NCBI GenBank assembly: GCA_000934665.2
Contig: KZ538008.1
Coordinates: 124,001-188,000 of the forward strand
Reading direction: 5' to 3'
Length of the DNA stretch: 64,000 bases
Source: Catajapyx aquilonaris
Taxonomy: Eukaryota
Below, piece after piece: positions 4,101 to 58,851 of the stretch. The notes under the pieces were generated by a model. It did not search any database, was not told where the DNA came from, and saw nothing but the letters and a program-made list of their open reading frames with translations. A program made the position numbers and the translations under genes. Each line of letters starts with the position of its first letter. The first letter of the stretch is position 1.

Positions 4101-6182
4101 GTCGTGACACCGTTATGGATCGGAACGTCATCTGAAACTTGGCTAAGGAACACCACCCAAAATCTCCCAAGTTTGGTGTCCCATTTACATGCGGTAAGCA
4201 GATGTGGCGTCCTTGAATGTCGCCCAGCAAACTTTCTGGCTCGGTACTTTGAAGGATCATATAGATATAAATTTCATCACAAACATCTCGAGCACTCTTA
4301 ATAACAATTTTTCTTTCATGGCACAGACTAGTACTGTAAGAAATGTCATCTCTTTCATGTTACACTTCTTTACTAATAGTGTGTTATAAGATGTACTAAT
4401 ATGCGGCCAATAATTGAAAAGATGACGACCACTCGTGAAATCCAAAGTGGTAGTGGGCAGTTCGAATCCGAGACCTCCATATATAGAGTCTGTCACCTGA
4501 CCCTCTCCATCCTACTCCCCCGGTTCTTGTGTATTTACTCTTGTCCACTCGTATCAAAGCGTGTGCCTGCATTTGACAACTTGACGACCAATACAGGATT
4601 GCTGTTGCTTGGGCCCTCGGTGCCCTCACTGTGACTTGGAGTGGAAAGGAAGAACGAACCGAGTGCACTACACGAACACGATAGGCCTACAGTGCCACAA
4701 GCATGTGATCAAATTCTACTAACCAATCATTACATAAGTCCGCTCATACGGCATATATTTCAGCGGAAAATGAAGCAGTTTTGCGCAAAGAAATTGGCTT
4801 CCTTTATTCATCACTGATCTTGGGATATCACGCAGCGAACTGTAGTCAAAGTGCATCTAGTTCCATGATATCCTATTTCTGTGCCACAATAAGAAGACAT
4901 CCCGGTGACATTATTACACTGTATTTTACCTAATAACTACTTCCAATTTCAAATAACAAAAAAAAGGACTTGACAGATCCAATACATATGCCCCGAGGCC
5001 CGAGTCTACAATATCAATAACGAGAAGAAAAAAAAGGCCGAGCTGTTGTCTATAACACTTGCCCCGCCTCCCCCCACCCACGTCACACCCTCTTGTTATC
5101 CGGATCGATTGAGAGCTGCTCATCATGACTGCCTAGACAAGCGAAACCTCGTCTGTACAGTATCAGAATCGATTCAGTATCGCTAAAATTTTGAAGTGGA
5201 AAAAGTTACATCCTGGAAGTTAGACTCTCTCTGCACCAAAGGCATGCGGGTTGCCCCGAATATTCAGGATAATACTGTTCTCTCATCTTTTGAACTAGCT
5301 GCAAAGCAAATATTCGAACCCGACTTTGCACAGACGCATAATGTACGCCAACCATCTCTCGAGCTTTACAACTCCCATATAATTATATCAAGAAATTCCC
5401 ACTTACGCGCAGAGTTCAGTTGTTCCCGAATTACACGTCCCTCGCGACACAAAGTAGTTTTAATATTATTATTCCGAGTTAGTGCAAGCGTAAAATTATT
5501 TTTGCTCATTTCCACGCGTAACTGCATGCATTATTACCTCTCGCGTACTGATGAACAGGTTGTAAACGCGCTTGCTAGAAAAAAAAAGAGGGAGCAACGG
5601 GATAAATCCTATTATCAAAACGGGGAGACCGGAATGGAACAGTTTATTTTGCGCTCGACATCACCACCATACTCCGCGTATAAAACCCACACAATTTAAA
5701 TTATTCGGGGTGGTAGTAATTTGGTCCCTTCCCACCCCTTTTTTCCCATTCCCTACACTTCATTTCACTGGAACGCTCCATTTTTTAAAAGACAAATAGC
5801 CTTTCAGATGAAAGAGCCCCCAAAGTTTTATACATGGCTGCTGTTATGCCGAGTTTTTCGGAGGGCTCTTTTAGGCCATCCTACCAACGCAATTTGTCTT
5901 TGTCAATTGGTGCCATCCATCACCGGCCGAAGCTTCCTGGGTGTGTAATTAGGCTAAGACAAGAATCATCCCGCCAGGTGGTATAGCTTTCCCACCCTCA
6001 TTACATCCGTGTACACGGCTCTATATACAGCGCCTTACAGTAATTCTTCTCCGTTGGCAGTGAGTAAATAGTCTTCACAGCGCCATTCAGCAACAGTTAA
6101 GTTTCAAATGACTACAGGCTTCAACTTTCAATATCATCACGAGAGAGTTGCCTGTCACTTTAGCATCCCAAAATGCAGGGAT

Positions 6183-6602: not shown

Positions 6603-6884
6603 AAAATGCAGGGATGTTGTTCAAGGTACGACGATCTGAAGTATTTTTTGTTACACAATAGAGGTAACACTCCTTACAGTCCAACGTTTTTTAGCAGCGT
6701 CAAACTTGATAAACTATTCAGAAACTTCCATATATTTTCATACTTCCAAAATTACCTAGAGTATACAGTATACCTTGATCCATATTATGTTAAATCAACA
6801 TTTTCAATACCGCCAGAGCTTATTGTTAGGATAGCTAATCAAACAGGAGGCCCTTGAAATAGTTGCCCATATTTGCCTGAGGAA

Positions 6885-7256
6885 CAGTGCCGGATTTACC
6901 CGCCCTCCCCCCTGCCGGCCTTAGGAAGTTATTGAGATCCCCCGCCCCCCTCATGCCGCTTAAAAAATGCAAATTTTCTCTTGAGAGAGTTCTCTCCTTC
7001 ATTTTAGTTCATTTTATTTAAAAATTTATATTTCAACTTATGGCCGCCCCCGGAGGACGGCCGCCTTTGGCTTTTCTGCCTGGTATTTTTGCCTATATTG
7101 GAAAATCCGATGCTGGGAATCCCCCGGCGAAAATTTTGATTTTTTAAAGGATTTCGACTTTATTTCCTGTTATTGTAGACTATTTAAAAATATTTATTCC
7201 AACTCGCGGCCACCCCTAGGCAATTTGCTTATACTCTGCCTAATGGTAAATCCGAG
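6885..7256. mobile_element. Probable nested or decayed MITE remnants
   Basis: Left end cagtgccggatttacc (6885-6900). Inverted, similar right ends ggaaaatccgatgctg (7100-7115) and ggtaaatccg (~7245), each preceded by a related gccgcccc...gcct..at segment. Confidence 0.4.
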
Positions 7257-10200
7257 GAATATTCATATAACGTGGTCCAAACAGGAAGAATCATTTCTTA
7301 TACTCTATGTAAGATGTTGTTCAGGTATCCCTTTGCTAATAAGCATCAAGCAGTGTATATCAACTCAAGTTGAGAAAGAAATGTCTATTTACGCGTAGGA
7401 TCATTTATTTTTGAATACCTAATACGGGCATAACTGAGACCCCAGGAAGGAACTTTTCATCTTGGCTAAATCATACTGACACAGTCTGGCAGAGCAGATT
7501 TTTGGACACCGTATTTTTTAAATACTCGAGCTATACACTAGGGCGCAAATAATGGCAGTTACTTTTAACTGCTAAAAGTATCCAAATTTCTGCTGACTGG
7601 GAAACTGTTTTAGAAGCAAACACTGCCTTTCCTCCTCGTTGGACCACCCTGGTCACATAATAATACAAAAAAAACACACATACGAACAAAATTATTAATT
7701 TGCATATGAAAGATGAGACCTATCGACAACACCATTGTCAGCAAAATAATTTTAAAGATTTTTCTTCCCCAATGCGCTTTTAGCCTCTAACCATGCACAC
7801 TGGGATCAATAAATCTCCCAAACATTCACTCACTCTTCCCCAAACCAATATCACAATACATTCATATTATTTTACGAATGACCTCATCAATGCGAACAAT
7901 TTATACATTTACAGTTACAAGCATTTGGGACCATTTATTTTCGAGTCAGTCCTTCGCACCTGAGTAGTAGCTTCATATACTGTAGATTCCTATAATTAAC
8001 GAGCCATAAACACAGCAGTGGAATTCAATACATCAACCTAAGCGGTGTGAATTAAATTTCATTTGATGGGACTTATTGTCAACAATTTACACCTTCCTGC
8101 AAATCCCCTGCATTCATGGAGAGCCTTCCCTTCTAAGTACCCCCTCGCAGTTGGAATTCTACACCAATTTACGACCCCCCCTCTCTTCCGGCAAGCCGTG
8201 GCTTTCGAGTGAATTGAGCGTAGGAAATGACCAGCATGCATAGCCACAATCACCCACTTTCCCGCTTCCTCGCCCACTATTATTAGGAACAAAGCGGCGC
8301 GTGCGAATGCGGTGACGCCAGCCTACATTACGTCTCCACACTGGCACCCAGCCCATATGTGTCCCTCCTTCCCCGAAAAAAGTCCAAGCTACTCTCCCAA
8401 CTGCCAGACACTGCCTCCAAAAAAAATCCGGAAACATCTCCCCTGGATTTTGAAGAATCCTAATCCGGAAGTAGCCTCCGCACTCTCCTCATCCGGAACA
8501 TCCGCAACAGATGGCAGTCGAAACAGGGCCGCTCCCAACTCTTCCATACCTCGCCATCTATCCACACCCTCACCAAGTCAATGAAGATCTCCCTTCCACT
8601 GCTCCGATGCTGCCAGCCAAAATCCAGGGAGAGCCCGGAGAAACTCCGGGACATTGAGCGACACGACTGCCACCTTTACCTGGAGCTACGAATGACTTTC
8701 ATGAGATGAGAGACTGGCAATATCGGGCGTGGGCGCCGCTTGTGGGTGACAAAATAATGGTACCTTTGGCACTTATTGTTGTGAGCGCCTGTCGTTTTGG
8801 AAAATGACTGGTCATATTTTAGCGTTGATATTGCAGTCAAAAGTGGCCTGAGTTTTCCCGTGAGCATCTGAAATGCTTCACGCAGAGGTCAGCTCCTCAG
8901 TGCCCTCTAAAGACCACATAACAATCAGAACTGCTCAGTAACAACAACTAAACAACAGGTAAAAAACAGGTAATTATCATTGCCATTGTGTTGCAATGCA
9001 GAAAGTAACTGCAATTAGTCTAGTAGCCATTACCAAAAATATTTTAGTGCCAGTACTAGCTACTACACGTTGTCGTTGCTTTTATTAGTTATGGCATACA
9101 TTTACTGGCGCATTCCACATCAAGGTAGGCCATGTGCTAGTAACCCTTACCGCAAAATGTCGATTGCTGCAACAATTTTTAAGCATAAATGGCAAGCACT
9201 GCATTTTTATGTGCAAATCCCCGTAATATTCCCCCATCCATTCTCATCCACCGTGCTGCGTAATTGTAACACCAGCTACAAAAATGGCCAGGGTTCTCTG
9301 CAGGAGGGGGGGGAAAAAACGCAAAAATGCACCCGCTCGTTTGTCGACGTTGGAAGGTCGTTCTAATAAACGCGGTAGCCGGATAAAAAATCACGAGCCG
9401 CGACTAACCCCATAAATTACCTAATTCGACCTTATTATATTTTGCCAGACCCATGCCACGAACGCGTAAACAGCTCCAAGTGAAATCCTGTGTATCTCTC
9501 CCCCACCCCTTCCCCCCCCCTCCCTCTGTGAATGGATAATGGCCACCAGCCCGCTGAGAATATTCAAATGTTATTTCCCTAATCGCCAGTAGGTAGTGCA
9601 TATGCGACTATTATTGGGATCAACGCAACAATTTCCATCCGCCCATTGACGGTTATTAATGAACCGCACTAGGCGATGACGCTCTTTTTTTTCCGTCAGA
9701 CGCGAAAAGCGCATTAAATGACGCAGTCCTGGGGGAACATCGATACGGGGCGGCGTTGTCTGTTATGTCACCCTTCCTGCCATCTCTCGTCCGCAAATTC
9801 AAACTTGGGAGCAGCCGCCTTTTGGCGCCCTATGAATAGCCATGGACGCACCCTTCTGGAATTGCTCCCGTTTATCGGCGGAAACAAGAGGACCACCAGA
9901 CACTCGACCTTGGGGCATTGGGCCAGCCGGAGGCCTCGGGTACATAAAAGAATCAGACCCCCGTGGTCCGGCTTTTTTGCATCGAACGGAAGGTGTCAAG
10001 TAGCGGGGTTTATCAAAGCCGGGCCGCGTTTTTGGTCCATTAGCGACGTGCCCCCTGTGTCAATATGGATTCCTCTCGACTTCTCCCTTTTTGTCACTTT
10101 GTACGAACAAATTGTCAGTTTCGTCAAGTGCAAAGTACGATTTCAACTTGCAACTTGTACCGACATCAAAGAGCTCTTTTGAGCTGAACAAGCAGTGCCT

Positions 10201-33100: not shown

Positions 33101-35091
33101 TCACCCAAATGGCCAATAGTTCCACCACAGGGCTACAAAACAAAAAATTTAACATTTATATCCTGCATTTATTCCGTTCCCAAGTAAGTAACTGTCTGAG
33201 AAGATGGGAGCTTATCCCCATAAAGTTAATAAATCAGTTCAGTGTAACAAATTAGATTCACACCAGATAAGTCAAAAAAACACCTCTACTTCTTCACGAA
33301 GCAAGCTTTAAAATGATCCACGGCAAAAAAAACAAACTCTGAAAATGAATTACACCCAGCAGGTAACGGCCTGACACGGCGCGATGCTTCCAGTACCAAA
33401 GCAAATTTTAAATATCGCAGGTGTCTAGCCAACTTTTGCTCTAAAGTGGTCCAGGCCATGCCCTAACACTGCATTAACCGTGTTTAGCAATACCAATGAT
33501 GAGTTAATGTAATATAATAAATTATTTAGCATCCACTATGAAATATGGGTAGCGATTCTGTTTGCTGTCAGTGTGAATCCAGGCCGCGGTTCAATTATCT
33601 ACAAACACAATTTTCACCGCTGTAACTATGTAATTACGTATTAGGCCGCCCATTAGTATCAATACTGTATATCTCAGCATCATTCGTCAAAGTAAACCGT
33701 TAAATTCCGCCCCATGATTAAAGGGCATGCTATATTCCACTGCGGCACCTGCAACAAATTACGCCTATTTGTTCTTGCCCGAGTAATCCTCTTAATTTAT
33801 GAACCGGTCACACCAAAAAACATCGCACCTAAGCCAATTTGCAGAACAAGAAAAAGAAAGCCCAAAATTGTATTTCACGTGCCAGTTTCATGGCTAAACC
33901 CTCTCTTCCCTGGTAATAAACGCTTCATAAAATTCAGCGGGTTGTAAGGCCAGAATTCATATAGAGCTTAACCGCACCCCGTTCATTTTCATTCTCATTT
34001 CTTCTTCTTTTTTATTCCAACCTCTCCTTCCTATCCTGGGCGCTGGAGGTGTTGAGAAAAGTTCCCACGACCTCGTTACGCGGACTTCCCTCGTTTTTCT
34101 CCCAATCGTGGGTTGAAAATCAATCGCCATTTTTTTCCCCTTACCCCCACTCTCGTCACTATACCCTCTCACATCTCTTTGAAAAGTTCCCATCCATTCT
34201 GGACGTTTCATGTGGCTGACTGGAAACACTGGCCGGTCTTAATCAGCTTGCGCAAATTATGGGAAACTAATCCGGGGAAGGCTCTTTCCGAGCATCACAC
34301 CCGATTTGTAACGTGTTTCCAATTTTAATAATTAGTGCCGAAGGAACTGGGTCACGATGAAACTTTTAATCCGGCTCTCAAGCCAAACAAGGAGTAAAAG
34401 ATGGTCCTTTCCTTCTTCGGCGCCTTGTTTGCAATAATGGGAACCGAGTCGAAACGGGCCATCATTTGTGGTCCCGAATCTTCCGAATCCGCATGATTAA
34501 AAATGCAACATTTAGTCTAAATAATGCACAAATTTTGTAATTCATTACTACTGGAAAAAGGCAGATAGACAGTTATCTCTTCAGGAATTTTATCAGTGTA
34601 CGCTATCAGTCAATCGCCGGTTTGCACTATCACTACTAGATGACATTACACGTTTCCTTTTACTAATCTGTGTTCGAAGTCCTCTCAATTAAAATCAGCT
34701 TCACAAAAACCGGGTATAAAAAATTGATCTATAGTCCGATCGACTTGGACGGGTCCAGCCAAATCCCTGCCTCCGTTTCACCCGTCCCATGCCCATAGCC
34801 ACTAATCCTGACCGCTCCGGCCACCTTCCCATTCTATCGCCCCCCAAAAAATCGCTCGTAATCTGCCTACAGGTGGCGCACCCCTCAATTCTGCATGATA
34901 TCCCCAGCTGGTTGACAAATGCACACCCCCCCCCCCCCCAANCCCCCCCCCCCAAAAAAAAAAATCCTTTGATCTTTCGGCAATGTGCAAGGCTCGGTTG
35001 TAAACGCACTTTGGACCAGATCCACGACCATTACGTGGCCGAACGCCGGCGTCTCTCTTTTTTTATCCAACAACAAAACGCTTGTGCTTAC

Positions 35092-35223
35092 CTAAAAGGG
35101 CCTGGAAGAGGCGTGACTTGAAGATCCGGATGACCCTCTCGATGGCCAGTCGCAGTTGTTTGTCCTGAGGCCGTGTCAGCTTCGCATGATAGTCTTCCAG
35201 AAGCTCTAGCGCTCGGTGCGCCT
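35092..35223 (-). CDS. dlg1: Discs large 1 (MAGUK), coding exon 2, L27 domain
   Basis: ttttcttacag|AG GCG CAC ... TTA G|gtaagc; 132 nt, phase 1/1. Encodes (E)AHRALELLEDYHAKLTRPQDKQLRLAIERVIRIFKSRLFQALL(D), near-identical to the Drosophila Dlg-S97 / SAP97 L27 N-terminus. Confidence 0.96.
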
Positions 35224-38200
35224 CTGTAAGAAAAGAAAAAAAGAGTGGGGGCGGGATAGTAGGGAGTTAGCAAACAATCCACTTCTTCCGATATCCGTTT
35301 CTTCCCCGATTAAACCACTAGAGGTGAGCAACACCATTGAAAAAATAGAAGAAGAAGAAGAAAAAAAAAAATCAAGGCATAGAGTACTTCTCAACTTTAT
35401 GGCTCGTGATTCAGGCCGAGAGGGTAGGGAATATGAAAATTATTACCTTCGTGCCGTAATTTCGGAACTGGATATTACGACTAATCATGTGCTCTCCAGT
35501 CTTTTGGCCAATAGCATGCAGGTTTTTTAGCGCTCCCGAAACAACCTGCGTCTTCCCTACATTAGCGCTAATTATTTTTTAAGTACCCTGTATCGCTGAC
35601 AGTAATTGCACCGTTTTGTAGTTGCAAGCTGAAAAATTATATCCCCTGCAATTACGAGCGCTTTGCAAAACCGATTGGCTCCTCCCATTTAAATGGCATC
35701 AACAGGTAGGGCAATTGTCGCGTCCATTCGCAAAAGACGAACAGGCGACATATATAATGCATAATTTCATGCCAGTTATACTTCACCTTTCTTACTCCGG
35801 GAGTTTCCATTTCATGAATAGAGCCTGTCTTTTGCAAAGAGCAAAATTATGGCAGCTAAAACTGAAAAGCTCTCCGCGGTCTTTGAGCACCAGATTATGG
35901 CCGGGGGTAGGACAGCCACGGACCGGGGAGGCTGGTGGGGGAGGGATAAAAACCTATCAAAACAATGGCAAAATCCTGACAGTTCCCATCTGGCCAGAAC
36001 CCCCACACCATTCATTTTGAACCGACCTCGGACTACACAGTTTGACCTTGTTTCGCACCCACTTCCGCACTAGGTCAAACTCCCATACCACAAGAGGTAC
36101 GACCCCCCGCTGCAAAAAGGCAAGAAAATCCCCATGGCCTTTTGCGGGCCATCGAGCGGCCCTGATTAACCCGTCTTTCTGCCTACCTGTGGAATTAAAA
36201 CAAATAACATGCTTGTTTGCTCGGCTCCGCTGCCAAGTGGATCGAGTAGAATGAATGTGATGGTCCTGCAGGGTTTCTCTCCTTGCCCGCTGAACAAACC
36301 CCTAGGGCTTCCCAAGTGCAATGAGGCGAAGAATTAGATCCCAATCCACGAAGCCTTTTAACCAGGGCCTGCTACTATATACAAAAGCAATAAGGTCTGG
36401 GTGGCCACAAACCTGCACTGCTGGAAAATTAAAGGTGTGCAAACCATACCGAGGTTGTCATGAAAATGGTTTACGGCCAGGGCTGTATAACCAATATCGC
36501 CCGGATTTTATCGTCCGGGTTTGTGTCCCAGTCCGGCTCATTGAAAGTTAATGTCGGTGGCTATCAGCTGTTCGCAATCTGACATCGCAATCAAGTTGTG
36601 ATTCAAGGCCAGATATCAGTGCTGCAGCCAATTTGCCTCGTTCTGCACTGACCATATAGCGGGTGCATATATCTCATGAAGCTTGGCAATGTGACAAGCT
36701 CCTCAATATATATGCATTAATCATCGCTTCGATTGGGAATTAGCTACTCGGACGCAACTGACACCCAAAAGCAAAAGTCACATGCTAAATGAAGCGTCTA
36801 ACATGCCCAACAGGGTTGCAGAGAGTGAGGGGAGTTGGTAATGCTGCAGTGTGCAACGAATTAGCATAAATCATTCTCAATCTACATGCATATGAGGGCA
36901 CATGGCAATCACATGAGAACAACAACAGTGTACAGCATACAATGTGGATAAGTATTTGCTTAGGCATGGTACGCACACAGTTTGTTCTGTCACTGAATGT
37001 ACCCTGTTTACTTCGGCGCAACGCACGTTGAGTTATACTGTTCTTCAATTTCTGACCAAAATTTCTGCCAAAATTTTTCAAGGAAGTTGGCACCGGTGTT
37101 CCAATTGTGCTTGTGCCAACTGGTAATTGAATGCCAGACAAGTAATTATGGAGTCACAATGCAAAAGGACTACTTTTAGGGAATTCTGCAATTTGGGGTG
37201 AGTAGTGGGAGGTATGAGTTGGGTGAGGTTAGGCTTGATCTTATGCCAAGTTCTAGGCCAGTGTTCAGCTCCACCCAGCTACCCACCATAAACTGCAGAA
37301 GTTCCCAGTTTTTGCTCAAATTCTGAAGTGAATTAACAGCCTAGGAGAACTCCTACTATCATGCCCAGCTGTCAGCAGAACAGATCGCTTTGGACACATT
37401 CAATAGTCGATAAAGGACTGATTACATGTCTGCCACGAAGCAAAATTCGCCAACACATATATCTTCCACTGGAAATTTACATTACCCTGCCCTTTTCATG
37501 GCAGGAATTTCTCTCCCCTAGGGTTCCACAGTAAATTAATGTGTCAGTGGAATAAAATCAAGATTTTTGGCCCATAAAAGATGGAGTTGCACTTTATATC
37601 CACTAAAAAGCCAATAGCTGAATGATGGTAGATATTGTAGCAAAATTACTGTTGAAATCCTCCAACCCATTTTAAGTTGTTTTTTTTCCACGTGCATAGA
37701 AATCTCCACTACATTACTTACTAGAATGTATATTTATAATACTAGCATATTGATTTGTCCCACATAATGTTACAAGCAATTGTTTGCTCTGTAGAGATCT
37801 CAGAATTAACCTACCATATAAGTCACTAAATTATTTACCTTGTATCCACAAATGTCGCATTCAAAGGAGTAATCTTCCACATGGCATTTCTTGAGCCATA
37901 CAGAGAAGACTAACATCACTTCTAAACAGTGGCAGTTTATTTATGAAGTACCCAGCACATTCACATGTGCATCAAAGTAATTGCAAATATATCAGGTAAA
38001 TATTATTATGACATTTAAAATATATCTGTAACAGGGTGTATCCATTAGAGACAGTTTTGCAAACACTTTCCAAGTAGTGAACAGGTTTTCATCTGAGGTG
38101 ATGGAAACACATTGAAATATATGCAATGCCGACCAACCAAAAGTTCTGTAATTGGCAAGTTTCTATTATATTCCAAGGGTAAATTTTACATTGTTTTCAC

Positions 38201-40062
38201 TATTAATAATGTAAACATTCAGTGGTTATCAAAACTTCAGCATCGCAATACAAAGGTGTTACATTAAAGACAAACTACTTTCTTGAATTCCAAATGTGTT
38301 GCAGAAAAGGATGCAGTGGAATTGTACTGTACTAATGCAGTCACAGAAGAGTGAAAGCCGCACCTTTCAGAAGTAAATATTATTTATATGAAAAAATAAT
38401 GATTCAGCATTCCTGTTGCCTGTACAAGTGTACATATCACTTGTACTCGTATATAATCACTGTCTCACTTAAAGAATATCTATGTCATTAAACCAGATGA
38501 ACATCCCACATAACAGTTGGATGTAAGGGAAAGTCAGTCAAGACTACTGTCACACCAATAAATAGCTGCAACATACAATCCTTACTGTCCAATGTTAGCA
38601 ATGACAGCTTCAAGGTCAATTACAACTTGATAGAAATTACTTTAAAAATCAACTGGTAGTACATCACCCATGACAACAACGAAAAGTTTGTACACATCCT
38701 GCATGATGCAAAAGCGAGCTGCAGATGTTGACTAGTTAACAACTTTCAACCTCCATCACCCTGTGGGTACCAGCATCACATTACAGTAGTCGCACACCCC
38801 AAAATACTAGGTGAAGGCTTCAAGGGATTATGGACGTAATCTTGCACAGGATGAAGCAATACTTCTAGTGCAGAGCTCTCAAAAAAACACCTTTTGATAA
38901 TTAATAAGCCAACAGCAATAGTTACTTTAGTGTATTTGAAGACTAAAAGCAGATGAAATTATATGACCAACTTACTATAATTTCAGTGTATACTTCTTTT
39001 GTTTACTTGAATAATCATAATTAAATTACTACTAACCACTAACTACAATGAATGTAAAATCAATTTCCATGTGAAGACTGAACGCTGATATCTGATGATT
39101 TTGGGCAGTAAGTTTCCCAAAAATAGCAATTAGCACAAGCTGCTTATACTATTAATTACCAAAAAGATGTCACATTTTCATATATCAATACAATGTCAAT
39201 CTTGCTTCATCCTGCAGACCAATGTGACGCAGTACACCCCAAGCATATTCAGGAGATGAAAGTTGTGAACTGCAATGATACAAACATCAATTACTTTATT
39301 GGCAAATCAAGTATTATGTAGACAGAGTCAAAACTTTTGTAGTTCTGCAGCTAAGGAACTAAAGGAGGCCTTTACAAAAAAAGAAATAAAAAAAGAAACC
39401 CAAAGTATTTTGAAGGTCAACCTGCAGTACATCATGGCCATCAAGGCCATATTTTCCTTCGAGCACTGCAGTAAATGACAGGAATGTTTGTTGTGCAAGT
39501 TTGTTCACTGCAGGTCTGCTTGCACTGACCCAGCTGAGATGTGTCTCAAATATTGGATTTACCCATGCTTCATGGTATTGGCAATTCCAATGAGATGCAG
39601 TTTGTCTATTCAATAATACCATGAGTTATTACTATGCAACTGCAGTGAAACAAACATTAATTGGGCCAGTCACCCCAATACTGGTACATGGCGATACCAT
39701 GTTGTCAGCATTCAATAATAAACTAGTTTCAATGCATTTCAGTGACAGAACAACTTGTGTAAAGCTGGTGTACTGGTCACTCTGGCAAGAGCTGAACGAC
39801 CCTTGCCATTACGACCAGACGGCTTGCAACAGCTGTCACTCTGAACATGTACGCCACATTACGGCCTGCCCTCCGCTCCAAGTGGCAGCGGCAGGAATAT
39901 GCTTGGAGACTTGCTGGCAGGGTGCGACGGACCCGTGCACCTGGACAGCAAGCTCCGACCCGCCTGCTTGTTTATCCACGTCATGGCATGCAGTGTCTTG
40001 CATTGCATGTGCCAGCAGTGCGTCATGCAGTGCTTGTGCTGGATCATCCTGGATCTTACCAC

Positions 40063-40081
40063 CTTGCTTACGGACGGGCAT
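40063..40081 (-). CDS. dlg1: Discs large 1, first coding exon (MPVRKQ)
   Basis: ACC ATG CCC GTC CGT AAG CAA G|gtggtaaga. MPVRKQ is the SAP97/DLG1 N-terminus, and the phase-1 end joins exon 35092-35223 in frame. An alternative donor 3 nt further on would end the exon at 40060. Confidence 0.9.
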
Positions 40082-40299
40082 GGTTGCAAGCAGTCTCTGG
40101 GCCTCGATGGCTATCGCCTCTGGCAGCAGGTAAAACTCGGGGCCGCCCTCCAGCTCTCCTCCTCTCGGCACTGCCTTGGCCCCCCCCTCTCCTTCTCTTC
40201 TTCCTTCGTCACTACTACTACTACCACCACTACGTCCACCCCAGGTCGTCCTGTCGGTTGGTGCCCTCTCCTCCTCCACCCGCACTCAGAGTCAGTCCT

Positions 40300-40736
40300 G
40301 TGGCCCAGGGGCCGCCCCTGCACTCCACCACCACCACCACCACCACCGACCTCAGTGGTCTTCCTCCTGGTCCTGTTCCGCACTATGGAAACCGGACACC
40401 TCGGCAGCCAGCCCGCACCAGTGCCGCCCTAGAGAGGGACCCGGACATCAACACGGGGCCAGGTTTTGGCGGAGAGTTGTAAAGTGGTGTATAGCAGAGG
40501 GGGGGGAGGAGGAGGAGGGATGGGGGATGACACACACACACCGGAGGAGGAGGAGGGTGAAGGGGGAGTGTTGCAGTCTGTGGCGGTGGGGGAGGGGGGG
40601 ATAAGAAACGATTCAATATGGCGGCTGCAGAGGGGGGGAGTTGGTTCCAGGGGGATGACGCGGAAGGGCGCTGGGGTAGGGGGAAGATGGCCGCCCCCAG
40701 TCGCACGGTGTGACCAAGGCTGATTCTACTGCAATC
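40300..40736. promoter_or_regulatory. Putative bidirectional promoter / 5' UTR region between dlg1 (-) and TMEM126 (+)
   Basis: The two ATGs are 655 bp apart. GC-rich, purine-tract sequence with two YY1/Pho-like motifs: CAATATGGCGGC (40614-40625) and AAGATGGCCGCC (40684-40695). Confidence 0.6.
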
Positions 40737-41678
40737 ATGGCTCTGCAACGAACGAGAGGCGCCATTCCGAAAGATGCTGTCAGTCTGACAGAAAAAGAGG
40801 CCAGAGCACATCAATGGAAAATGGTGCAAGAGTGGACTCCCAAGAGGGATACGTTAGTATTGTTTGCGGCTATAAGCAAAGTCGAAACTGTTATCCTACT
40901 GATAATAGTCACATCTGTACATGGCAATAAGGTTGTGTTTTCATTTAAGTAGCTAGCCCCAAGTGACTTTTCCTGTACATGCCAAAGGTATCGCAAACAA
41001 ATGTATCACGCAAATCGGCTGATGCCTAATACCCTTCCAGGTGGCCGTTTCGATATGGAGTCATTATTTTGTCCGCATCCGCAGCACTGTCGAGCTTCAT
41101 GATCAACAATCACTTTCGAAATAAGCTCCGCCTAATGTCGTATGGCCGCGTGTCCTCGTACTTGCCAATTGTAGTTTTACCATCTCTTGCTTGCACCTTA
41201 TTCCATTATGAGGTAAGTCCTGCCACTGAATGAATTTACCATAACATGATGTTTACTAATCTTTTTCAGTTTGTGACAAGCAGCATACTGGTTTTTAAAA
41301 ACGAATGTCCAACGTGCCTTCAGCTGAAGGCCTCAGCCATTCAGTGTGCATGTGGTACTGTTTATCCTTTTGTGATGGCTCCACTGGCTTCATTTGCTGT
41401 AAGTATACGTTCTATGCATGTTAAAATTGAATATAAATCCAACTTTTCTGTTCTAGTATGCCACACGGTATCTTACCTACAACGTGCCTAACTTCCTACA
41501 GCAGCCACAACTGGCTGCTCAGCTGCTGCAAAAGTTATCTCGTCCCCTGATGGGTAAGCTCGGAATCAGCTTCTTGGCACAGATGGCAGTGGCAACAATA
41601 CTCACCCACATGGAAGCAAAGTCCCTGTACAAAATGTATAAAAAGATGGGAGAAATAGAGACGGACATAGTGTACTAA
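40737..41678 (+). CDS. TMEM126: Transmembrane protein 126 (mitochondrial complex I assembly factor family), 212 aa, 4 exons
   Basis: Exons 40737-40852, 41041-41212, 41270-41398, 41457-41678 (639 nt, all GT-AG, frame closes). Peptide MALQRTRGAIPKDAVSLTEKEARAHQWKMVQEW..INNHFRNKLRL..SSYLPIVVLP..ECPTCLQLKASAIQ..GTVYPFVMAPLASF..ATRYLTY matches arthropod TMEM126. Confidence 0.9.
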
Positions 41679-41759
41679 AAGCAAAGTCTTGCTTGGTTAA
41701 AAATCTTATTTTTTATTTTTTTGCCATCAATTTTTTTTAAATCCCATTACTGACCATAA

Positions 41760-41765
41760 AATAAA
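41760..41765 (+). terminator. Candidate polyadenylation signal of TMEM126
   Basis: AATAAA about 80 nt after the stop codon. Confidence 0.5.
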
Positions 41766-44700
41766 AAAGGTGCACAACGCATCACTCATCCACTGAACCA
41801 AGCAGGTCTGAGACAAAGACCTGCCCTCACACTGTAGACGGCTATAAATGTTTCCCCTCCACACTAAAGTGGGGACGGAAAAACTCTGGCCTGGTCCTAC
41901 AACTAGGCACAATGTTTACCAAGTACCGACCTCTTGCTAGACACTACCAGGTGCTGCACTAAGGAATCCTAACTACTGGTTTAACACAGGCTTTTTTGGA
42001 GGGACCTGTGCACTCGTTTCTGTTTGGAAACAAATGGGGATAAGAGGCTGGAAGGCTTGAGTTTGCCTACTTATCTTCCACTTGTGCTTCTCTGATGCAC
42101 CGCCCGTGTTTTTATCCATAAGTACTGCACAAATGCAATTGTGAGCAATGGCTATCTTTGATGCATCTTCTTGGGTGAAGCAAATGGCCCAACGGCACAG
42201 CTGATGGCAGCCGTATGATCAGTGCAATATTTCATGAACCTTGTCATTTATACCAAGAGTTTCTTCCCTTGGGCTGCTTGGCAAAACATGACTGTGACCC
42301 CCATGCAGCCTGCTTTAAGCTTCAAAATGACATCAAGTGGCCCAAAGCAGAAGCACAAGGATCCTGGGGATCACAAATCATATTAATGCACAGAATTTAG
42401 AAAGCAGTCAAGAGAAGAAACTCATGTTACACTTCACCCAATCCAATGGCATGGAAGCCAAAATTATAATGCCTCTTCTCTAAACTAGCATACATTGGAA
42501 ACGAGGGCACAGATCCCTTGGACTCTCCCTGGCTTCATTGCCTCTAGAAATCACCCAGGTAATCGTGGGTGTGGATTGGACCGTAGACTCAAAAAAATCA
42601 ACCTAAGGATGTAACCCAGGCGTCAAACCAACCCACTTCAAAGTTTGCAGCCTTTGGAAAGAGTGGTTTGTACAGGCACTGAGGCTACCTTGGGTAATTC
42701 CTAGAGATAAGGTCTATTTTTGAGACTGACCCTCTCTTCACACAAAAAAGGGTGGTCAAACTTTAAGGGAGAATTTTTGGGACTTTTTAAAATCGGTTAC
42801 ATTATGATCACATGAGTTAGCGAGGAAGCGTCCAAATGCAAAGCATAGTGCAGCAGTAACCACTGCTCTTCTGGGCAGATTTAATATAAATCACAAGACT
42901 TCCTTTGAATTAGACACCCCTAGGTCGACACTCAAGAATTGGCAGGCCATTCATCTATCCAGTGGGTTATGCGCGTGACAAATGCAGTTGTTCACACCCC
43001 CAATAAGGTGTAGGTGCGATGTTTTAAGTGTTTCACGCGGTTAATTCTCCCTGAGGATGTGTGTGTGCTAAAAAGATCAGCAAGGTGTTACTCCCTGGAA
43101 GATATTACAATGCCTCTTATTGCCACTTCACATTCTCTTTGGCCTCCATTTATTGGGTGGGTTTGTGACTTGCTCTATGTAACTGCACTCGGGAGATGCA
43201 CGGAGTGAAAGCTTTAGCCTTGTGTATGTCAATTGGACAGAAGCAAAGATTTTCATTTCGCTATGTGCACCTCTGCGCTAAAATGCCTACCACATTCGAA
43301 AAAAAATGCATGTCAACAACTTCCTCTCTCTTTTTTTAAGCTTGTACTCTTCTTTTAAAAACTGTTAGGTAGAGGGAGCATATACCATTCAACAAGTAAA
43401 CATTAATATCAGATAATGGTTATAACAGTACGACTGCTGCTTGGCAGTAAGGCAAGAATTAATGCAATTTTTTAATCCTCTTGGCATCTCACAACAGTAA
43501 TTTGTTTGGGAAAAAATAAAGCTTTTTTTTTGTTTACTCGTGTCTCACTAAATGTTTCACCCTCCCAAGACTGTAAATATTGACTCTCGAATGCACAGGA
43601 TATGCCCTAGTGCAGCTATACTTACGACCCCATTAACCCCGATCTGAAAATTTGTTTTTCCCCAATGACCAATTTCCTTCTTTCCTTACTGCACTTGGGA
43701 TCTCCCTCGCGCTTCCAGAGTCGGCCGCGCATTGGCTCGCCCAAGAGATCCAAACCTTTGATTGCACGTGAGACTGTATAGACACACTTCCACAAATACA
43801 GATAGCATGAAAAAAAATTGCAACCATGTCTAGCCATTGAAGAATTACCATGGGAGATAGCGTGCTTCTTTTCATTTCGACACTGGTCGCTACATTGGTC
43901 GCCCTCACAACAATCCTAGCTGTGGGCTCACATCGAAGTTTAAAGATAAAACCACTGGAACATTTACGAGTAAGTCCCCAAGCTCTATATCTGTAAATTT
44001 TCACCTTTTCAAAAAACCATGATGTATAATAATTATTCTGCACAACAAATGCAGCTGACTTAACCTACATAAAATACCTCTTTAGTACACATCCTAAAGC
44101 TGTTCAGATTTTAAAACTAACGTAACTTTGCTTTGTGGTTAACACGGACGAAGACTTGTCACTTCACTGGTAAAACCTGCTATATAGGGACCTTGCCATC
44201 AATGAATAGATAGATATGTGGTAGTTATGAAAGGAGAGCTGAAAGCAAAGGCAATATATTGAACTGGACACAATGCATTGCTATGTTTGTCCGAGAAAGC
44301 ACTGGCAAGAGAAGTCCTGAAATTTCTTCTGTAACAGTCGTACAGTAGTAGTTTTGGTTAGTTCCTCAGCTCGCCTTTCTAAAAATAAACTGATATGAAA
44401 TTTGTTAAGTTACAATATATTGTTAGTCTTGAAATAATTGGTACTCTAAATCACAACGTCCCTACTATCCATGATCCTAACACCGTCAAAAACCACTCAG
44501 AAGAGGTTTTCCACAATTCTGCCACAAGCACACTCTAGTAAAACCACAAACTAGAATATGTATATAGTTTATACTCTTTGAAGTGTTAAGAAAATGCTCC
44601 TAGTTTTCGAAGCTCAAACCAACTCCCCCAAAGCATCACAATACCAGTTAAAATAAATCCCATGATATACACAAGCACTACGGAGAAGCAAGCTATCAAC

Positions 44701-47700
44701 TTTGTTCAATAACAGCCCTTGCAATGGCTTCTGTTGATTCAGTTTAAACTGCACACCGAGATCTTCAGCAAACAACAGATTCCACAGTAAAGCCATCACA
44801 TAATACTACTGCAGTGTCAAAACTACATTTCTCATTCACACAAATGTGGAACTCATGTTTTGAAGTTTTGAAAGCGCAGGTCCACCATTCCAAACTTACA
44901 CTATGCATACACGAGGAAAAATACATGTACAGTATTAATAATGTGGAAGTGAAAGTAACAAGCACACAATCATTTTTCTGTTTGGATCTCCTGATTAATA
45001 AGTAATAACCCAACATGTGGTTCTCTCAGCAGAGAGAGGAACATACTTGCTGGAGACATAACCACTAAAGGACCAGGACTCTCCACACAACAATAAAAAA
45101 ATGTATAAATGGCATACCAACACACTCGTGCTTAGTACATGTGGAGCAAATTGTTTCCCATACTCCTCTCTAAAATGGTAGAGCATAGAATCCAACATGC
45201 AAAGACTACATTACATTTTCTCCATTTTTTTGTTCTCGTTTCTTTTTTCATTCCCTTACCTACCAAGAAGCTATGCATAGTAGATGACAAGGAAGCTATG
45301 AGGACTCATTTCCAAACTGTTATTCTTAGTTGCTGTTGGTTGTGAGAATGAGGTGGGCACAAGAAAATTCAGTCATTCCTGGCACTGACTGTCCAGATTA
45401 ATCATGAACATGTCTTTGCTGAGATTGAATTCTCCACTCTCCACACACCTACACCAACACTTCCCGAAAGCATTGCTTCATTAATAATTCCAAGCTAGGA
45501 TAAATTTCGCTTGTGACAATGTTTTGCTGCCAACCTTATTCAAGAGAGTAACAATGTGAATAGCATGCCCATACTTCTCTTGGAAGATCACAAATATGGA
45601 CTCTGCAAAAGTTCCTTGCAGAACAGCTGCTTGCATTTTTGTCATTTCCAAACACAATGCTAAGCCCGTCGCAAAATATAGCAGAGAACTTGTCATAAAT
45701 AAGAGTAAATAAAATTAACACAGAATGAACCAACACCATGAAAGGTAGCAATTTTTCAACTTTGCAAGGCATTAATAGAAAGTAGTAGAGTAATAAATAT
45801 AAGTACAAAGGAGTCCAAGAACAATGATTCAATCTACAACTCCTCAACAGCATCTCCAGCAAGGTGTCAGCATTCCAAAAAAAAGGCAAAAGCTTCAAAA
45901 AATTATGGAAATTTATCTTCATTTTAAAATACAGATACAAGCAAATTACTGGCTGCCTGTAAATTGAGGATTAAATTCAGCTCAAGTTAGCATGGTGTTA
46001 CGCATACACAAACGCTGACACATTTCTATGTCGAATCAATTGAAACGTTGCACAACAAAATTCCTTGGCGTAAGTACATTATTTTTGGCTGTTTCTGCTG
46101 CACCTTGGTACTGAAAAATGCAATCGAGCATTGTAAAGAGTCTTGTTCTTGGGCCACTATGTAAAAGATTAAAAAATAATCACACAAGGTGTCATCATCT
46201 TCAGGTACAGGCAAATTTTGGATGTAAGCCTGTGACTCGAGACTTACCCACACTTTGCGTAATACCTGCAGTGAATGTAGGTGAGGAAGAGGAGTCAAGT
46301 AGGTTGGTTAGGGTTTGCTCTGCATTTAAGGCCTAGATGGTTAAACATGCTGCACGTCTTGGCCAAACTAGGGTCCTTTTCAGCATGCTAGAGGTACACT
46401 CCTCAACTGCAATAATCTCACAAGCTAGATTTGGTAATTCGCTAGTACAGTACTCACATGGCCTGCTTGCCAATCAGTTTTACTTATTCCTCTTTTTCTT
46501 TTTTCTTTTTAAAATTCAGTGACACCTACATGTGGTGGAACAGCCCCTTTACCTGAGTAGAGGGTGGGTGAAAGACTATTCACAAATTGGCTCGGGACTG
46601 GACACTTTTGAGTTGCACTACTCCCCCAAACACACTGCAGTGTAGACAGCTGTCCTGTATTTTGTAGCATCTGTTCTAATCTTTTCTGGAATCACCAACC
46701 ATTGAAAATAACACCTGACATTTTTAAATATTCTTATCTTCACCTCATTTTCATGCCAGGCTCATTGGCTTGTGTTGAAATGCAATGGTTTTTTTTCCCC
46801 CTTTCATTTGTCTTCTTCAATGATACTTCATTACAATTTTCAAATCAAAAAGAATGGTTCTGCAACCCTCCAATATATTGTTTACCTACATGATTCAAGC
46901 AATATTGAAACTTGAAAGTAACATTATGTTCACTGGAAATACCATCATAAAACCAAATGAATTTTCTCAACATACACCCAAAATCAAATAACAGCATTAA
47001 ATTTTGTGAAAAACTTAAAATGTGCCAATGTTTCAATAATAGTGCCAAATTAATGCATGTCATTTATGCATTTCTTGTCCCTATTCTGCATTTTATTTCT
47101 ACTGCTCAAAATAATTGCTGGAAGTAGGCCTGAAATGATTCCCTTTACAATAAATTTGATGATGAAAAGTTAGCATTCCATCAATAAGATTCATGCTAAG
47201 ATTTGTGAAAGGGCAACTACTGTACTCCAAGATTGCATACAAGTTATGATGAAGTTACAAGAAGTAAAATATTTGACAATCCTTTTATGTAATTGCTTCT
47301 CGTAAGAACTTCTGTCCAAACTTCTGATCAACCTTGTAGTCGGCACCCTATGAATGCCTACCCAAAAAGAGCCACGTAGAGAACACATTCGGTTCCAAGT
47401 CATTCCTTTGAATATCATTTTGAATGAATAGAAGTCAATGTAATCCTGTTGTTTTGTAACTCAACTGTAGCTGTACTAGGTAAATGCCTCACTCCCTTGA
47501 GTCAGTTGAATAAATGAGCATTACACAAGTACAGTATACAACTAAAGACTACTCTCAACTTTGTTACTAACTTGGCACCACAGCTCACCATCCAAAGTTT
47601 ACACCAACACATCTTAATCGCTAGCCCCTCAGATCAAACTATCATCTGACTTAGGATGTAAGAAATTCCATGTTCTAGTCATGCCTCAAATTCCAAGGAT

Positions 47701-48569
47701 ATGCCAAATAAAGGAATAACGTTGTTGATCTTCTTATGACCCACCACGAATAACCTCAGAAATACATTCCTCCTGGCCTACCCCAGCTTCTTTTCTCATG
47801 CAACTTCCAGGCACATATCCATTGAGCATTAGTAAGGGTAATGTGCCTCCTAGTATGAACAATAGAAAATTACTGCCAAAACGGACAATTTACAATCCCA
47901 TATTCTACACAAGCATTACAACTTGGATTACGTGATTAGTGAGAAGAATAGCGTAAGTGCCATTCAAGTCCATAAACACCAGAAAGTTGCAAAAAGCAGG
48001 CCAACAAATGACATTCAAAGTAGATAATTTATGTTGTCAAGCTTAAGGGTTTGCATAGATATCTGCAATGAACTAGAGCAAGAGTGTACTTAAATTCATC
48101 ATTTAGAAGTAAAATTAACATGCCTTTCTGCCAGCTTTACTTTCTGAAGCTAACTGCTCTGAAACTGAGATCAGCAACACTGTGCCATTTGTAAGTGTAA
48201 ATTGAATAATCCTTCTTGAAGTCCCGCAAACAGCAAACTTTCTGTTTAGCATTTATTTTTGGTTCCCTTCATTATATCTCCAGTCACATCCTTAAATAAT
48301 TGTGCAAGTCCCATCACCCAATACAAAACAAAACAGAAACACAGAAAGCATACTGGGTCTTATTTTGCCCCAGTGAATGGTGCGAGAGAGAGACAGGCAC
48401 AGGATTGATGAAATCGTCACACTTGGTGGTGTAAACCATGTCAGTGGGCACCTTGCAGTGCATATGCATACGAATTTATTGTTGAGTTTTTAAAATTTTA
48501 TTTTGTAAATGGTCACCCACTTCCCATATTTAGTTCAAGCATGAAAGAAACACTCATTGTCTTAAGCCA

Positions 48570-48665
48570 TGTACTATGGGCGCCAAAAGAATTGACCGGA
48601 ATTGATGGGTATATAGCGCCATATACCCATCAACTCCGGTCAATTCTTTTGGCACCCATAGTACA
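48570..48665. repeat. Long inverted repeat (45-bp arms, 6-nt loop)
   Basis: Arms 48570-48614 and 48621-48665 are reverse complements with two transition mismatches. Confidence 0.93.
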
Positions 48666-49614
48666 ACAAAAATCTTATCCAAAAATATGCAAGTGTACTG
48701 CAAAAAGTCCACCAATTTTATTTCCAATGCAAAGGGTGACCAGTCCATAAATTCTAGCCCCACGCCCCCTCCTGGAGTATCCACTTGGACAGAGATAAAC
48801 CATGTATATAAAAGAAGTACGCTTTCCAGTGAAGTACTATCACACAAGATGGTTGAGATAGTTCACATCATTGTAATATATATTTCATGCATGTGTTGAG
48901 TAAACTGATATTGAAGGGCTCCAGTCCCTTAACGTTTAGAAAATTCAGTGCAACTGTAGTGCATAAACAGCAGCCTAAGCATGAAATGGAATGCAAAGCT
49001 TCCAAAAGTACAAAGCCTCACTACTTGTAATGACTTCACTGCATGAATTCAAATTTTCCCTCCTTTCCTTCATTCTTCAAATCAACAATATTCAGAACTA
49101 CAAAACATGCCCACCTACCCCTTTCACAACTACTTTCAATCATGAAAATGCAGCAATTAACCTCACATTCAATAAAAAAGAAGTGGCAGTGGCATTGGCA
49201 CTGTTGCGTAATCAAACACGCCCATCCTTCTTCCTTGTTCATCATGGGATAACACAACAAACACCCAGGTCAATTATTATGCAATATGCAAAATATTAAA
49301 TTCAATCTCAAATGAATGAAAAATCAGATCAACTGATGATTTCTCCCATAATAAACAAGTTCATCCATGACTGGGTGGGGTCATCAAGATTTGCATTCCA
49401 TTCCAGTAACACCCTAATAAAAATACAAAATATAAGTAAACAAACTGGGCATATCAAAACAAATCTGTTTATGCAATTGTTGCTTTCTTTCTCCATGTCT
49501 TTAACCCAATCATAAGCAATTAATGAGCCTGACCTTACATTCAAGTGTATCTGCAAATCGTCGGGTCTACACTGCAGCCCATGCAAAATTAACCCCACCT
49601 AAGTTCCACATGTG

Positions 49615-56671
<7,057 letters not shown>

Positions 56672-58851
56672 CTTTCTTCTTCCTCGTCCTTTCCTCCGCC
56701 TCTTCCCCTCCTCCTGCTTCTTCGCCCCTGCTCTGCCCTTGCCTTCTCCCTGCCTGCTGCCCGCTATACCTGCCTGGGCTAGCTCACTTGCATCGGGGCC
56801 AACACTGGTCGCACCACCCAACCAAGACACCCTCACCACAACAAGTCAGTCTCTTGTGACTCACTTTCACTCGCACACCCTTGGGGCGTTGAGGTGAGCG
56901 AAGGAGGGAGAGAGGGCAGGTGGAGGAAGGAGAGAGAGAGAGTGAACAGCTGAGGAGAGAAACAGCAGTTGAGTGAGCTGGTAGCTCCCCCCTCCTCCTC
57001 CCTGCTTCCTCTCCTTTTTTTCCCCTTTTCGAGGGGCAGCCAGCAGCCAGCCAGCCTGCCAGCCAGCCAGGGGGAGGGAGGGACACCACTGCAGACCCCC
57101 CTCACTCTCACCCCACTTCGCCAACCACCCACACACGCAATGATGTATGCTGGGGGAGGGCGGGGGTAAATAACGGCTATTAGTAGCTGCTACTTGGCAG
57201 CATTTTTACAGCACGTTACTAGAGTTAGCATCCAAAATCGGATTACATTATTAGAAAGGTTGCAACAGTCCAACTGTTGCAACTGGGCGAATCGATATCA
57301 TTTCTAGTGTGGATATGACACAGAGAGTAACAAATCGCGCTTAGTACTTTGGCGGAAGAGCCGTTGTGCGATACTCCTGCTATCTGACGGCGGACTTGTC
57401 AAATGTGTGGGTGCGTCCGATTTATGGCACTGTGCGTGCTTACTGCTTAGTGAACTAGTGAAGTGTGCAATGTAAAATGGTAAGGCATCGCAAATAGAGC
57501 GATTTAAACCATGTCGACTGGAATGTTGCACGGATCAGTCCTGCAGGAAGGTCTGTCGCGCGACTTGCTTCTACAGGACCTTGGGAGGTTGGCTAATATG
57601 CAGCCTGGTCCTCCTTTCATGATATGCTGCAATGTACGGCGAACACACTTCTGCGTCGTTGCATAGATGTGGTGCATACATAGCGTCACGATAATGCGGA
57701 TATTGCTACTTGTCCCGCCGACACACTATAATTTGGTGTGGCTGTGTACCAAAATGTTATTTATCCAAGGTTAAAACATGTCCTTGAATTGTCAGAATAA
57801 AGACTGCGGTCAGCCTCAACCTGTTCAAGGAAAAATGGTGACTCATTTGATTGAATATCATAATCTGCTGAAAACAAAGCATGTGTTACTTATGGAGGGA
57901 TTGCCCCCATATGGCTCTATTGAACTGTTTGGCGTATGAATATAACCAGGTCATGCAAATTAATGAGCCGCTATGTAGCAGATGTGTGAACACGTCCATC
58001 GCTGTGAAAAAAATTACGCTCGCACTTATTAGCACAATTATTGGCAATTTGCAGGCGAGGTCTGGCACGTCCAGTTATCAAAAGCGACTTTGTAAGCAGT
58101 TATCCTACAGTTTTGGTCTAAGCAGATGACAACAAGGTAATAATCTTCTGATTACACTCTCACTTCTCTTCAACATAGTGTGAACAACGTATGTGTCAAT
58201 TCACACGTGTCACATTAATTTTAGTAAAAAATGTCAGGTCGAAACTGCTTACTAATAATGTGATAAGTGAATCACTCGAGTATTGATAAGATATCCGTAG
58301 TCTGTTACGTGGTTTCGACCATGGACGTAGCATGTGAAACTACCAAGGTATTTAGCTTTAAAATGTGTGCTTGTTTATCAGTCGAGTACAACCTCAATTG
58401 CCAGGGTCATAAAGGGCAATTGGCAGACTATGTAATTATCAGTATGCATAATAGTACTGGTTACATCGCTGCGAGGGAACGACCCAGGGTCTCGACAATG
58501 TAGAGTCGGTTCCAAAAATAAGGTTGCGTAATTTTTGCATCACCTTAGTTGAAGTCTCGCCAACATAAATGTTTTGACCTTGGTACATAGAGCGTGATGT
58601 CTATGGCACTCAAGCCGGACGTCCTTCAGGCGCTTTTTGAACGCGCCTAATTCCCCTCCCATGCCTATCATTAAACATATTTTTGGAAGACGTGTTTACC
58701 GAACCGGTGTTATCAGGAAAACTTTTCTAATTATCTACGAGCCATGACGCAACAACAGCTCATTAGGGTGACAAATACGGCCCGAAATCGATCATGACCT
58801 GATGAGGTCACTATATTTTTGCAGCTCGTTGGTAGGAAGTGTGTGCGTTAC

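Follow-up and report, generated by a model that had tools for sequence, protein, structure and literature searches.

What places a gene for a cell-junction and synapse scaffold head to head with a gene for a complex I assembly factor, and for how long have the two been neighbours? The locus that raises this question lies in a stretch of 64,000 nucleotides of Catajapyx aquilonaris DNA (contig KZ538008.1), which was analysed as a whole and is called the window here. In it, Dlg on the minus strand and TMEM126 on the plus strand diverge from a short spacer. We find that this is a real, transcribed head-to-head Dlg-TMEM126 gene pair, and a like arrangement is seen in a second insect locus and in gene order at human DLG2. 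The pair is most likely of bilaterian age, and it was probably retained through the proximity of its two promoters.

The two genes and their transcripts

The TMEM126 gene has four exons and a reading frame of 639 nt for 212 amino acids, running on the plus strand from the ATG at 40737 to the stop at 41678. Exon 1 (40668..40852) is coding from 40737 to 40852 and carries a 5' untranslated region (UTR) that reaches back at least to 40668; exon 2 (41041..41212, WPFRYG...SYGRVSSYLP) is the best conserved part of the gene, and exons 3 (41270..41398) and 4 (41457..41678, to the stop codon) complete it. Family membership follows from exon 2 alone, which matches the Pfam TMEM126 profile (PF07114) at 33.3 bits, above the cut-off of 25. 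Exon 3 adds 19.3 bits at the adjoining profile positions 76-112, and exons 1 and 4, searched singly, gave no Pfam TMEM126 match. A TMEM126 profile of our own, built from 117 of 150 family representatives gathered by an exhaustive homologue search, matches all four exons in profile order with E-values between 2e-9 and 8e-25 (2.3e-9, 8.3e-25, 2.7e-17 and 1.4e-14 for exons 1 to 4). A family tree of 21 rows has one well-supported inner branch out of 18 and does not place the TMEM126 of the window. In human, TMEM126A and TMEM126B are described as mitochondrial inner-membrane proteins of complex I assembly, and the fly orthologue is given as CG13392 (PMC8346666).

Transcript evidence comes from X1, a public run of unrecorded kind that we take to be RNA-derived because its contigs bear six canonical splice joints. 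X1 contains 55% of the sampled words of 40000-41700, its contigs were aligned to 35000-54999, and our statements about transcripts cover the contig pieces listed, whose ends bound the start sites and are not mapped transcription start sites. One joint belongs to Dlg (40063|35223), three belong to TMEM126, and two to a third gene, AMMECR1. The three TMEM126 introns, of 57-188 bp, are all confirmed exactly (40852|41041, 41210/12|41268/70 and 41398|41457), and the TMEM126 contig starts at 40668, 69 nt ahead of the ATG.

Dlg begins on the minus strand with an ATG at 40081 and a first coding exon of 19 bases (40063..40081), ATG CCC GTC CGT AAG CAA G, which encodes MPVRKQ and one further base (G) before the donor G|GTGGTAAG at 40063. 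Read on into the intron, this frame has no family match in Pfam; the continuation of the gene, 4.8 kb from exon 1, was located by motif search. It is exon 2 (35092..35223), which starts (E) and encodes the first two thirds of an L27_1 domain (PF09058) at 79.6 bits and an E-value of 1.5e-22, where the cut-off is 29.7 bits. Exon 2 thus carries the N-terminal Dlg-type L27 domain (Pfam L27_1) that marks the Dlg subfamily of MAGUKs (DLG1-4, fly dlg1). The 4839 bp of intron 1 (35224..40062, CT..AC as read on the plus strand) are skipped in a spliced X1 contig whose joint, 40063|35223, is GT..AG on the minus strand. The acceptor and donor phases of exon 2 are compatible both with exon 1 and with the next, DIQEFYE exon, and the contig overhang past 35092 translates to (D)IQEFYELTL, the remainder of the L27 domain. 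The intron after exon 2 extends out of the window. A crude motif scan of the window found no PDZ, SH3 or guanylate-kinase (GUK) exons of Dlg, which lie outside it, so Dlg is identified here by its N-terminus and L27 domain.

Upstream of its ATG, Dlg has a C-rich 5' UTR of at least 355 nt (40082..40436, minus strand) in which base counts show CCA/CTC-type tracts, and the X1 contig spans 40063-40436 unspliced, with no gap and no mismatch. A pyrimidine tract and AG at 40119-40136 (minus strand), 38 nt upstream of the ATG, resemble a 3' splice site. The acceptor-like site, near 40120, is unused in the X1 contig, which reads straight across it, and an alternative upstream Dlg 5' exon joined at this point is possible. 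Among the listed X1 contigs there is no Dlg exon beyond TMEM126 and no joint leading upstream from Dlg exon 1. An earlier sequence-only reading of this DNA had named a dlg1 start site far upstream, beyond TMEM126, as a threat to the pairing; in the RNA seen, the exon instead continues unspliced for 355 nt above the ATG. Profile matches and spliced RNA identify each of the two genes, so chance is no issue for the observed head-to-head pair.

The spacer

The two start codons, at 40081 and 40737, are separated by a spacer of 655 bp (40082-40736) with a GC content of 0.63, and among the 1-kb bins of the window GC peaks at 40001-41000 (0.575). That the two genes diverge from a GC-rich spacer of this length had been read from the letters alone, and the profiles and spliced contigs now bear it out. 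The 5' ends of the listed Dlg contig (40436) and TMEM126 contig (40668) are 231 bp apart. The locus therefore falls within the usual definition of a bidirectional pair, divergent with starts less than 1 kb apart, whether the distance is taken between ATGs (655 bp) or between contig ends (231 bp, ends that only bound the starts). In the interval between the contig ends (40437..40667) we see a candidate for the core of a bidirectional promoter region that lacks a TATA box. This interval is G-rich on the plus strand, with G at 113 of its 231 positions. A motif scan of the 655-bp spacer found no TATA word, and the spacer holds YY1-like ATGGCG and ETS-like CGGAAG words. Many G- and C-tracts are present and the CpG observed/expected ratio is 0.46, so the spacer is rich in G/C tracts and is not a classical CpG island. 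A scan for bacterial-type promoters and terminators returned nothing, with models that are inapplicable to a eukaryote.

Mammalian-type bidirectional promoters, in which under 1 kb separates the two starts (Adachi and Lieber 2002, cited through PMC3514665), offer the closest description of such a region: they are likewise divergent, TATA-less and G/C-rich. The window differs from them in that its spacer is not a CpG island and its start sites are bounded by contig ends only.

The TMEM126 5' UTR also holds a short upstream reading frame at 40687-40713 (plus strand), of 8 codons (MAAPSRTV) and in a strong start context, which, read by eye, ends 24 nt before the main ATG. The word GAAGATGGCC contains the start of this frame; it presumably resembles a YY1-type motif that sits just downstream of mammalian start sites. 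Elsewhere in the same UTR, on the minus strand at 40706-40716, lies a 10/11 match to YGGTCACACTR, a word that we take to be the fly housekeeping core-promoter word 'Motif 1'.

Dlg 5' ends in other animals

Scanning metagenome contigs with back-translated Dlg exon 1 and its donor gave at least 117 stretches, 80 of them with 10-kb flanks, and six of these stretches are true Dlg 5' ends (L060, L055, L105, L019, L116 and L020). As to the adjacency with TMEM126, they comprise one positive, one fair negative, two weak negatives and two uninformative loci. The positive locus, L060, is the sole stretch among the at least 117 matches listed that also holds TMEM126, on the strand opposite Dlg and with 708 bp from ATG to ATG. 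Its TMEM126 gene is complete (exons 4398-4516, 6724-6895, 8161-8286 and 9502-9732), and all three intron positions compared coincide with those of the window. The encoded protein is 47% identical to that of the window, with 66.7% identity in exon 2, and its nearest relative is a partial Periplaneta americana protein (67% over 98 amino acids). Compared by eye, the two loci agree at 28 positions out of 30 counted from the Dlg ATG, 11 intron bases included. The 47% identity, the Periplaneta-nearest protein of L060 and the Timema-like AMMECR1 of the window together indicate two instances of the pair from different insect orders. Intron 1 of TMEM126 is about 2.2 kb long in the cockroach-like L060 and 188 bp in the window, and a stretch within it (L060 5200-5600) looks by eye like a retrotransposon fragment.

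Each of the five other Dlg 5' ends has its L27 exon just past a short intron. Four of them (L055, L019, L020 and L116) are AT-rich (GC 0.29-0.37), and their introns measure about 50 nt. The intron that follows MPVRKQ is present in all four, and the L27 domain is interrupted by an additional one; our guess is that they come from rotifer-like genomes. The DNA upstream of Dlg is 83% identical between L055 and L019. Neither Pfam (90 frames) nor our own profile found TMEM126 upstream of any of the five, and L105 and L116, with 300 bp of flank each, are uninformative on the adjacency. In L020, a frame upstream of Dlg matches Pet100/Med6 weakly; it is of low complexity and is no gene. Beyond these loci, an L27 alignment search of prokaryote-genome and viral contigs found no relative, and the insect-specific Dlg exon-1 pattern has no match in prokaryote-genome contigs.

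Between the spacers of the window and L060, one 10-mer, CAATATGGCG, is common to both, where shuffles expect 0.25. Words of the form AA(T/G)ATGGC(G/C) occur twice in each spacer (window 40615-40625 and 40684-40694; L060 3934-3944 and 4081-4090), in counts that are not significant against shuffles and serve as a lead only. No counterpart of the YGGTCACACTR match was found in L060.

The vertebrate side of the comparison is given by a deletion at human 11q14.1, which in Table 2 of PMC9140951 removes exons 1-6 of the long DLG2 transcripts together with TMEM126B, TMEM126A, CREBZF, CCDC89, SYTL2 and others. This content places TMEM126B and TMEM126A directly beyond the 5' end of human DLG2, and the gene order given in the sequence-only reading is thereby documented. 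According to PMC7962242 (see also PMC5518101), the first DLG2 exons encode a complete L27 domain, in isoforms 7/8 or PSD-93 zeta, so that in either phylum TMEM126 has a Dlg 5' end of this type as its neighbour: as in the window, TMEM126 stands immediately beyond the 5'-most, L27-encoding exons. The two loci differ in that human has a tandem of TMEM126B and TMEM126A where the window has one TMEM126 gene, in that the next gene outward is CREBZF in human and AMMECR1 in the window, and in that translation of the L27 isoform begins in a later exon of human DLG2 (exons 3-6; PMC5518101) but in exon 1 here. TMEM126B is described as a mammal-specific duplicate and TMEM126A as ancestral (bioRxiv 10.1101/2020.09.18.303255, citing Elurbe and Huynen 2016). 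Because TMEM126B is mammal-only, the comparison belongs with the TMEM126 locus as such, and the ancestral partner of Dlg would be TMEM126A-like. Among other vertebrates, one associated sheep single-nucleotide polymorphism is annotated to DLG2/TMEM126A/TMEM126B, DLG2 and the TMEM126 genes of chicken fall within one 2.7-Mb interval, and tmem126a and dlg2 are among six genes named beside four differentially methylated regions in brown trout.

At chromosome scale, the table of Simakov et al. 2013 gives ancestral linkage group 1 as the group of both AMMECR1 and the DLG family in most lineages, and it puts TMEM126 on a group-1 scaffold in Trichoplax, labels that fit an old shared chromosome. The same table marks the DLG family '?' in Trichoplax and amphioxus, where TMEM126 is given as Ta_1 and Bf_3, and does not recognise the TMEM126 family in Lottia or Capitella.

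The pair also belongs to a known kind of arrangement. Irimia et al. 2012 (PMC3514665) count 595 conserved ancestral microsyntenic pairs, and in human 54.8% of these are 5'-5'. Their 5'-5' pairs have preferentially conserved orientation and short spacers, which the authors explain by shared regulation or by regulatory blocks. Pairs such as HSPD1-HSPE1 resemble the one in the window, being unrelated genes in divergent orientation with a spacer below 1 kb, in an arthropod and in vertebrates; Dlg and TMEM126 fall in different Pfam families and are not paralogues. Full-text search found no mention of a Dlg-TMEM126 pair in the literature, where it may sit in supplementary lists or under other identifiers. 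Six supplement files of Davila Lopez 2010 carry no TMEM126 or DLG names, with other identifiers possible, and the supplement of Touceda-Suarez 2020 lists DLG1/DLG2 only as ohnologues. The idea that TIMMDC1, a fly complex I factor, is the CG-number neighbour of dlg1 was dropped, TIMMDC1 being CG9852 (PMC8346666).

The outer neighbour of the pair in the window is AMMECR1, which lies tail to tail with TMEM126 on the minus strand (41779..56845, from PF01871, open reading frames and contigs; the upper bound is the end of the open reading frame that holds the likely first coding exon). PF01871 matches 50919-51242 at 69.8 bits, the two X1 joints of the gene are 49779|50928 and 51135|52875, and a 69-amino-acid exon shares 99% identity with a protein of Timema shepardi, ahead of next best matches at 94% or below. 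Taken by itself, this closeness would make a stick insect akin to Timema the most likely source of the DNA. CREBZF, the outer neighbour in human, is ruled out as the identity of this gene. At the AMMECR1 3' end, an unspliced contig of 3350 nt (41779-45128) stops 101 bp from the TMEM126 stop codon and suggests a very long 3' UTR. With ancestral linkage group 1 assigned to AMMECR1 as well as to the DLG family (Simakov et al. 2013), this 60-kb stretch keeps old chromosome-scale neighbours together.

Age and retention of the adjacency

That the pair dates from the bilaterian ancestor and has been retained through promoter proximity is a reading to which we give a probability of about 0.5. Its first component, common descent of the insect and the vertebrate adjacency, we regard as highly probable. 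If TMEM126 landed at random on a chromosome that carries about 1000 genes, it would, by a rough estimate, come to lie head to head at the Dlg 5' end with odds of about 5e-4 per lineage, which makes two independent landings 20-200 times less likely than one retained ancestral adjacency. As for mechanism, the insect's single Dlg gene, from its L27-isoform promoter, and a TMEM126A-like TMEM126 gene, from its own promoter, would be transcribed in opposite directions out of a shared short, TATA-less, G/C-tract-rich region. The adjacency would have been inherited from the bilaterian ancestor and would survive in vertebrates beside DLG2. With the promoters so close (about 0.2-0.7 kb) or even interleaved, no rearrangement could break the DNA between them without harm to one gene or both, and the adjacency would persist.

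Several observations weigh against this reading. The contig ends that bring the two transcripts so close are not start sites. The spacers of the window and L060 have no significant similarity, their best local match having an E-value of 0.35. Among the rotifer-like Dlg 5' ends, L020 has no TMEM126 in 2482 bp upstream, and L055 (931 bp upstream) and L019 (628 bp), both weak negatives, have none either. That human TMEM126B is transcribed away from DLG2 over a short gap is a presumption. In fly, CG13392 presumably lies on 2L and dlg1 on the X; a literature search gave no map position for CG13392. Such a loss in fly would be unremarkable, since flies retain just 46 of the 595 ancient pairs (PMC3514665). 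The microsyntenic pairs of that study are linked in at least four of 11 major lineages, and Dlg-TMEM126 is seen in two, insects and vertebrates. The labels of Simakov et al. 2013 suggest that Dlg and TMEM126 lie on different scaffolds in early assemblies of Trichoplax and amphioxus, weak evidence, as the scaffolds are fragmented and the far-upstream L27 exons are often left out of Dlg gene models. The claim of the sequence-only reading that the pair predates the protostome-deuterostome split is therefore upheld in part: it gains from the recurrence of the pair in a second insect order and in vertebrates, and it loses from the rotifer-like locus and from the differing amphioxus and Trichoplax labels.

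Some of these points speak for independent convergence, in which insects and vertebrates would each have brought TMEM126 beside the Dlg 5' end on their own. The pair is known from two major lineages only, the labels in amphioxus and Trichoplax point, if indirectly, to different scaffolds, and a rotifer-like locus lacks TMEM126. Trichoplax TMEM126 is in group 1, which is the group of the DLG family in most other lineages, and if both genes once shared one ancestral chromosome, chance meetings between them would be likelier. We nevertheless consider convergence quite improbable. The match is specific, with TMEM126 beside L27-type first Dlg exons in both phyla, the per-lineage odds are small, and chance matches in randomised genomes are near zero, albeit under the four-lineage rule (PMC3514665). 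If the adjacency descended from a common ancestor, it might still have been kept by inertia alone, in slowly rearranging lineages and with independent promoters. The lack of conserved sequence between the spacers of two insects and the absence of the pair from a fast-evolving genome (L020) both agree with this, yet a span of over 500 million years along two branches is a long survival for a neutral adjacency, and 5'-5' pairs are a class whose orientation is preferentially conserved (PMC3514665). The 0.2-0.7 kb in question offer a small target, but a break anywhere within them would strike a promoter, which is constraint already. Pure inertia is thus unlikely in our view.

Other forms of constraint would place its source in gene regulation. 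Long-range Dlg enhancers within or beyond TMEM126 and AMMECR1, as bystanders, could lock the neighbourhood as a regulatory block, with no role for the promoter region. The size and complexity of Dlg, with its several promoters and very long introns (4.8 kb for intron 1 here, and a next one that leaves the window), suit this view, and such blocks are known as the second cause of pair conservation (PMC3514665). However, TMEM126 is tiny, with introns of 57-188 bp, and is unlike the typical long-intron bystanders of that study; the outer neighbour differs by phylum, and the spacer shows no conserved non-coding sequence between the two insects. A regulatory block accordingly strikes us as barely plausible. 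Selection for co-expression, in which one shared promoter would couple the dose of a junction and synapse scaffold to that of a complex I assembly factor, was part of the original proposal and is very unlikely. Dlg and TMEM126 transcripts are both present in X1, conserved 5'-5' pairs as a class are somewhat more co-expressed than controls (PMC3514665), and the AA(T/G)ATGGC(G/C) motif recurs in both insect spacers. However, its counts are not significant, X1 contig depth cannot rank genes, Drosophila seems to manage with the two genes unlinked, and the papers cited here contain no link between Dlg and complex I assembly. We know of no functional link between the two, and retention through promoter proximity does not imply one between cell-junction scaffolding and complex I assembly. 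A stronger version of shared regulation holds that the pair is a bidirectional promoter unit of bilaterian age (more than 500 million years), maintained by selection since both genes use the same core elements, perhaps YY1/Pho-like ATGGCG. We entertain this only tentatively and think it doubtful.

Were such a promoter unit to exist, the human distal DLG2 promoter and the TMEM126 promoter would form one regulatory unit, and 5' DLG2 deletions could also disturb a complex I assembly gene. In other respects the pair is probably very old but fairly ordinary, one more among several hundred known deeply conserved head-to-head pairs. If the adjacency is ancestral, the L27-type first exon would be the original Dlg 5' end, and the pair would provide a fixed landmark for aligning the alternative Dlg promoters of insects and vertebrates. 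The far-upstream human DLG2 promoter would then share its upstream DNA with TMEM126B, which would bear on the clinical reading of 5' DLG2 deletions.

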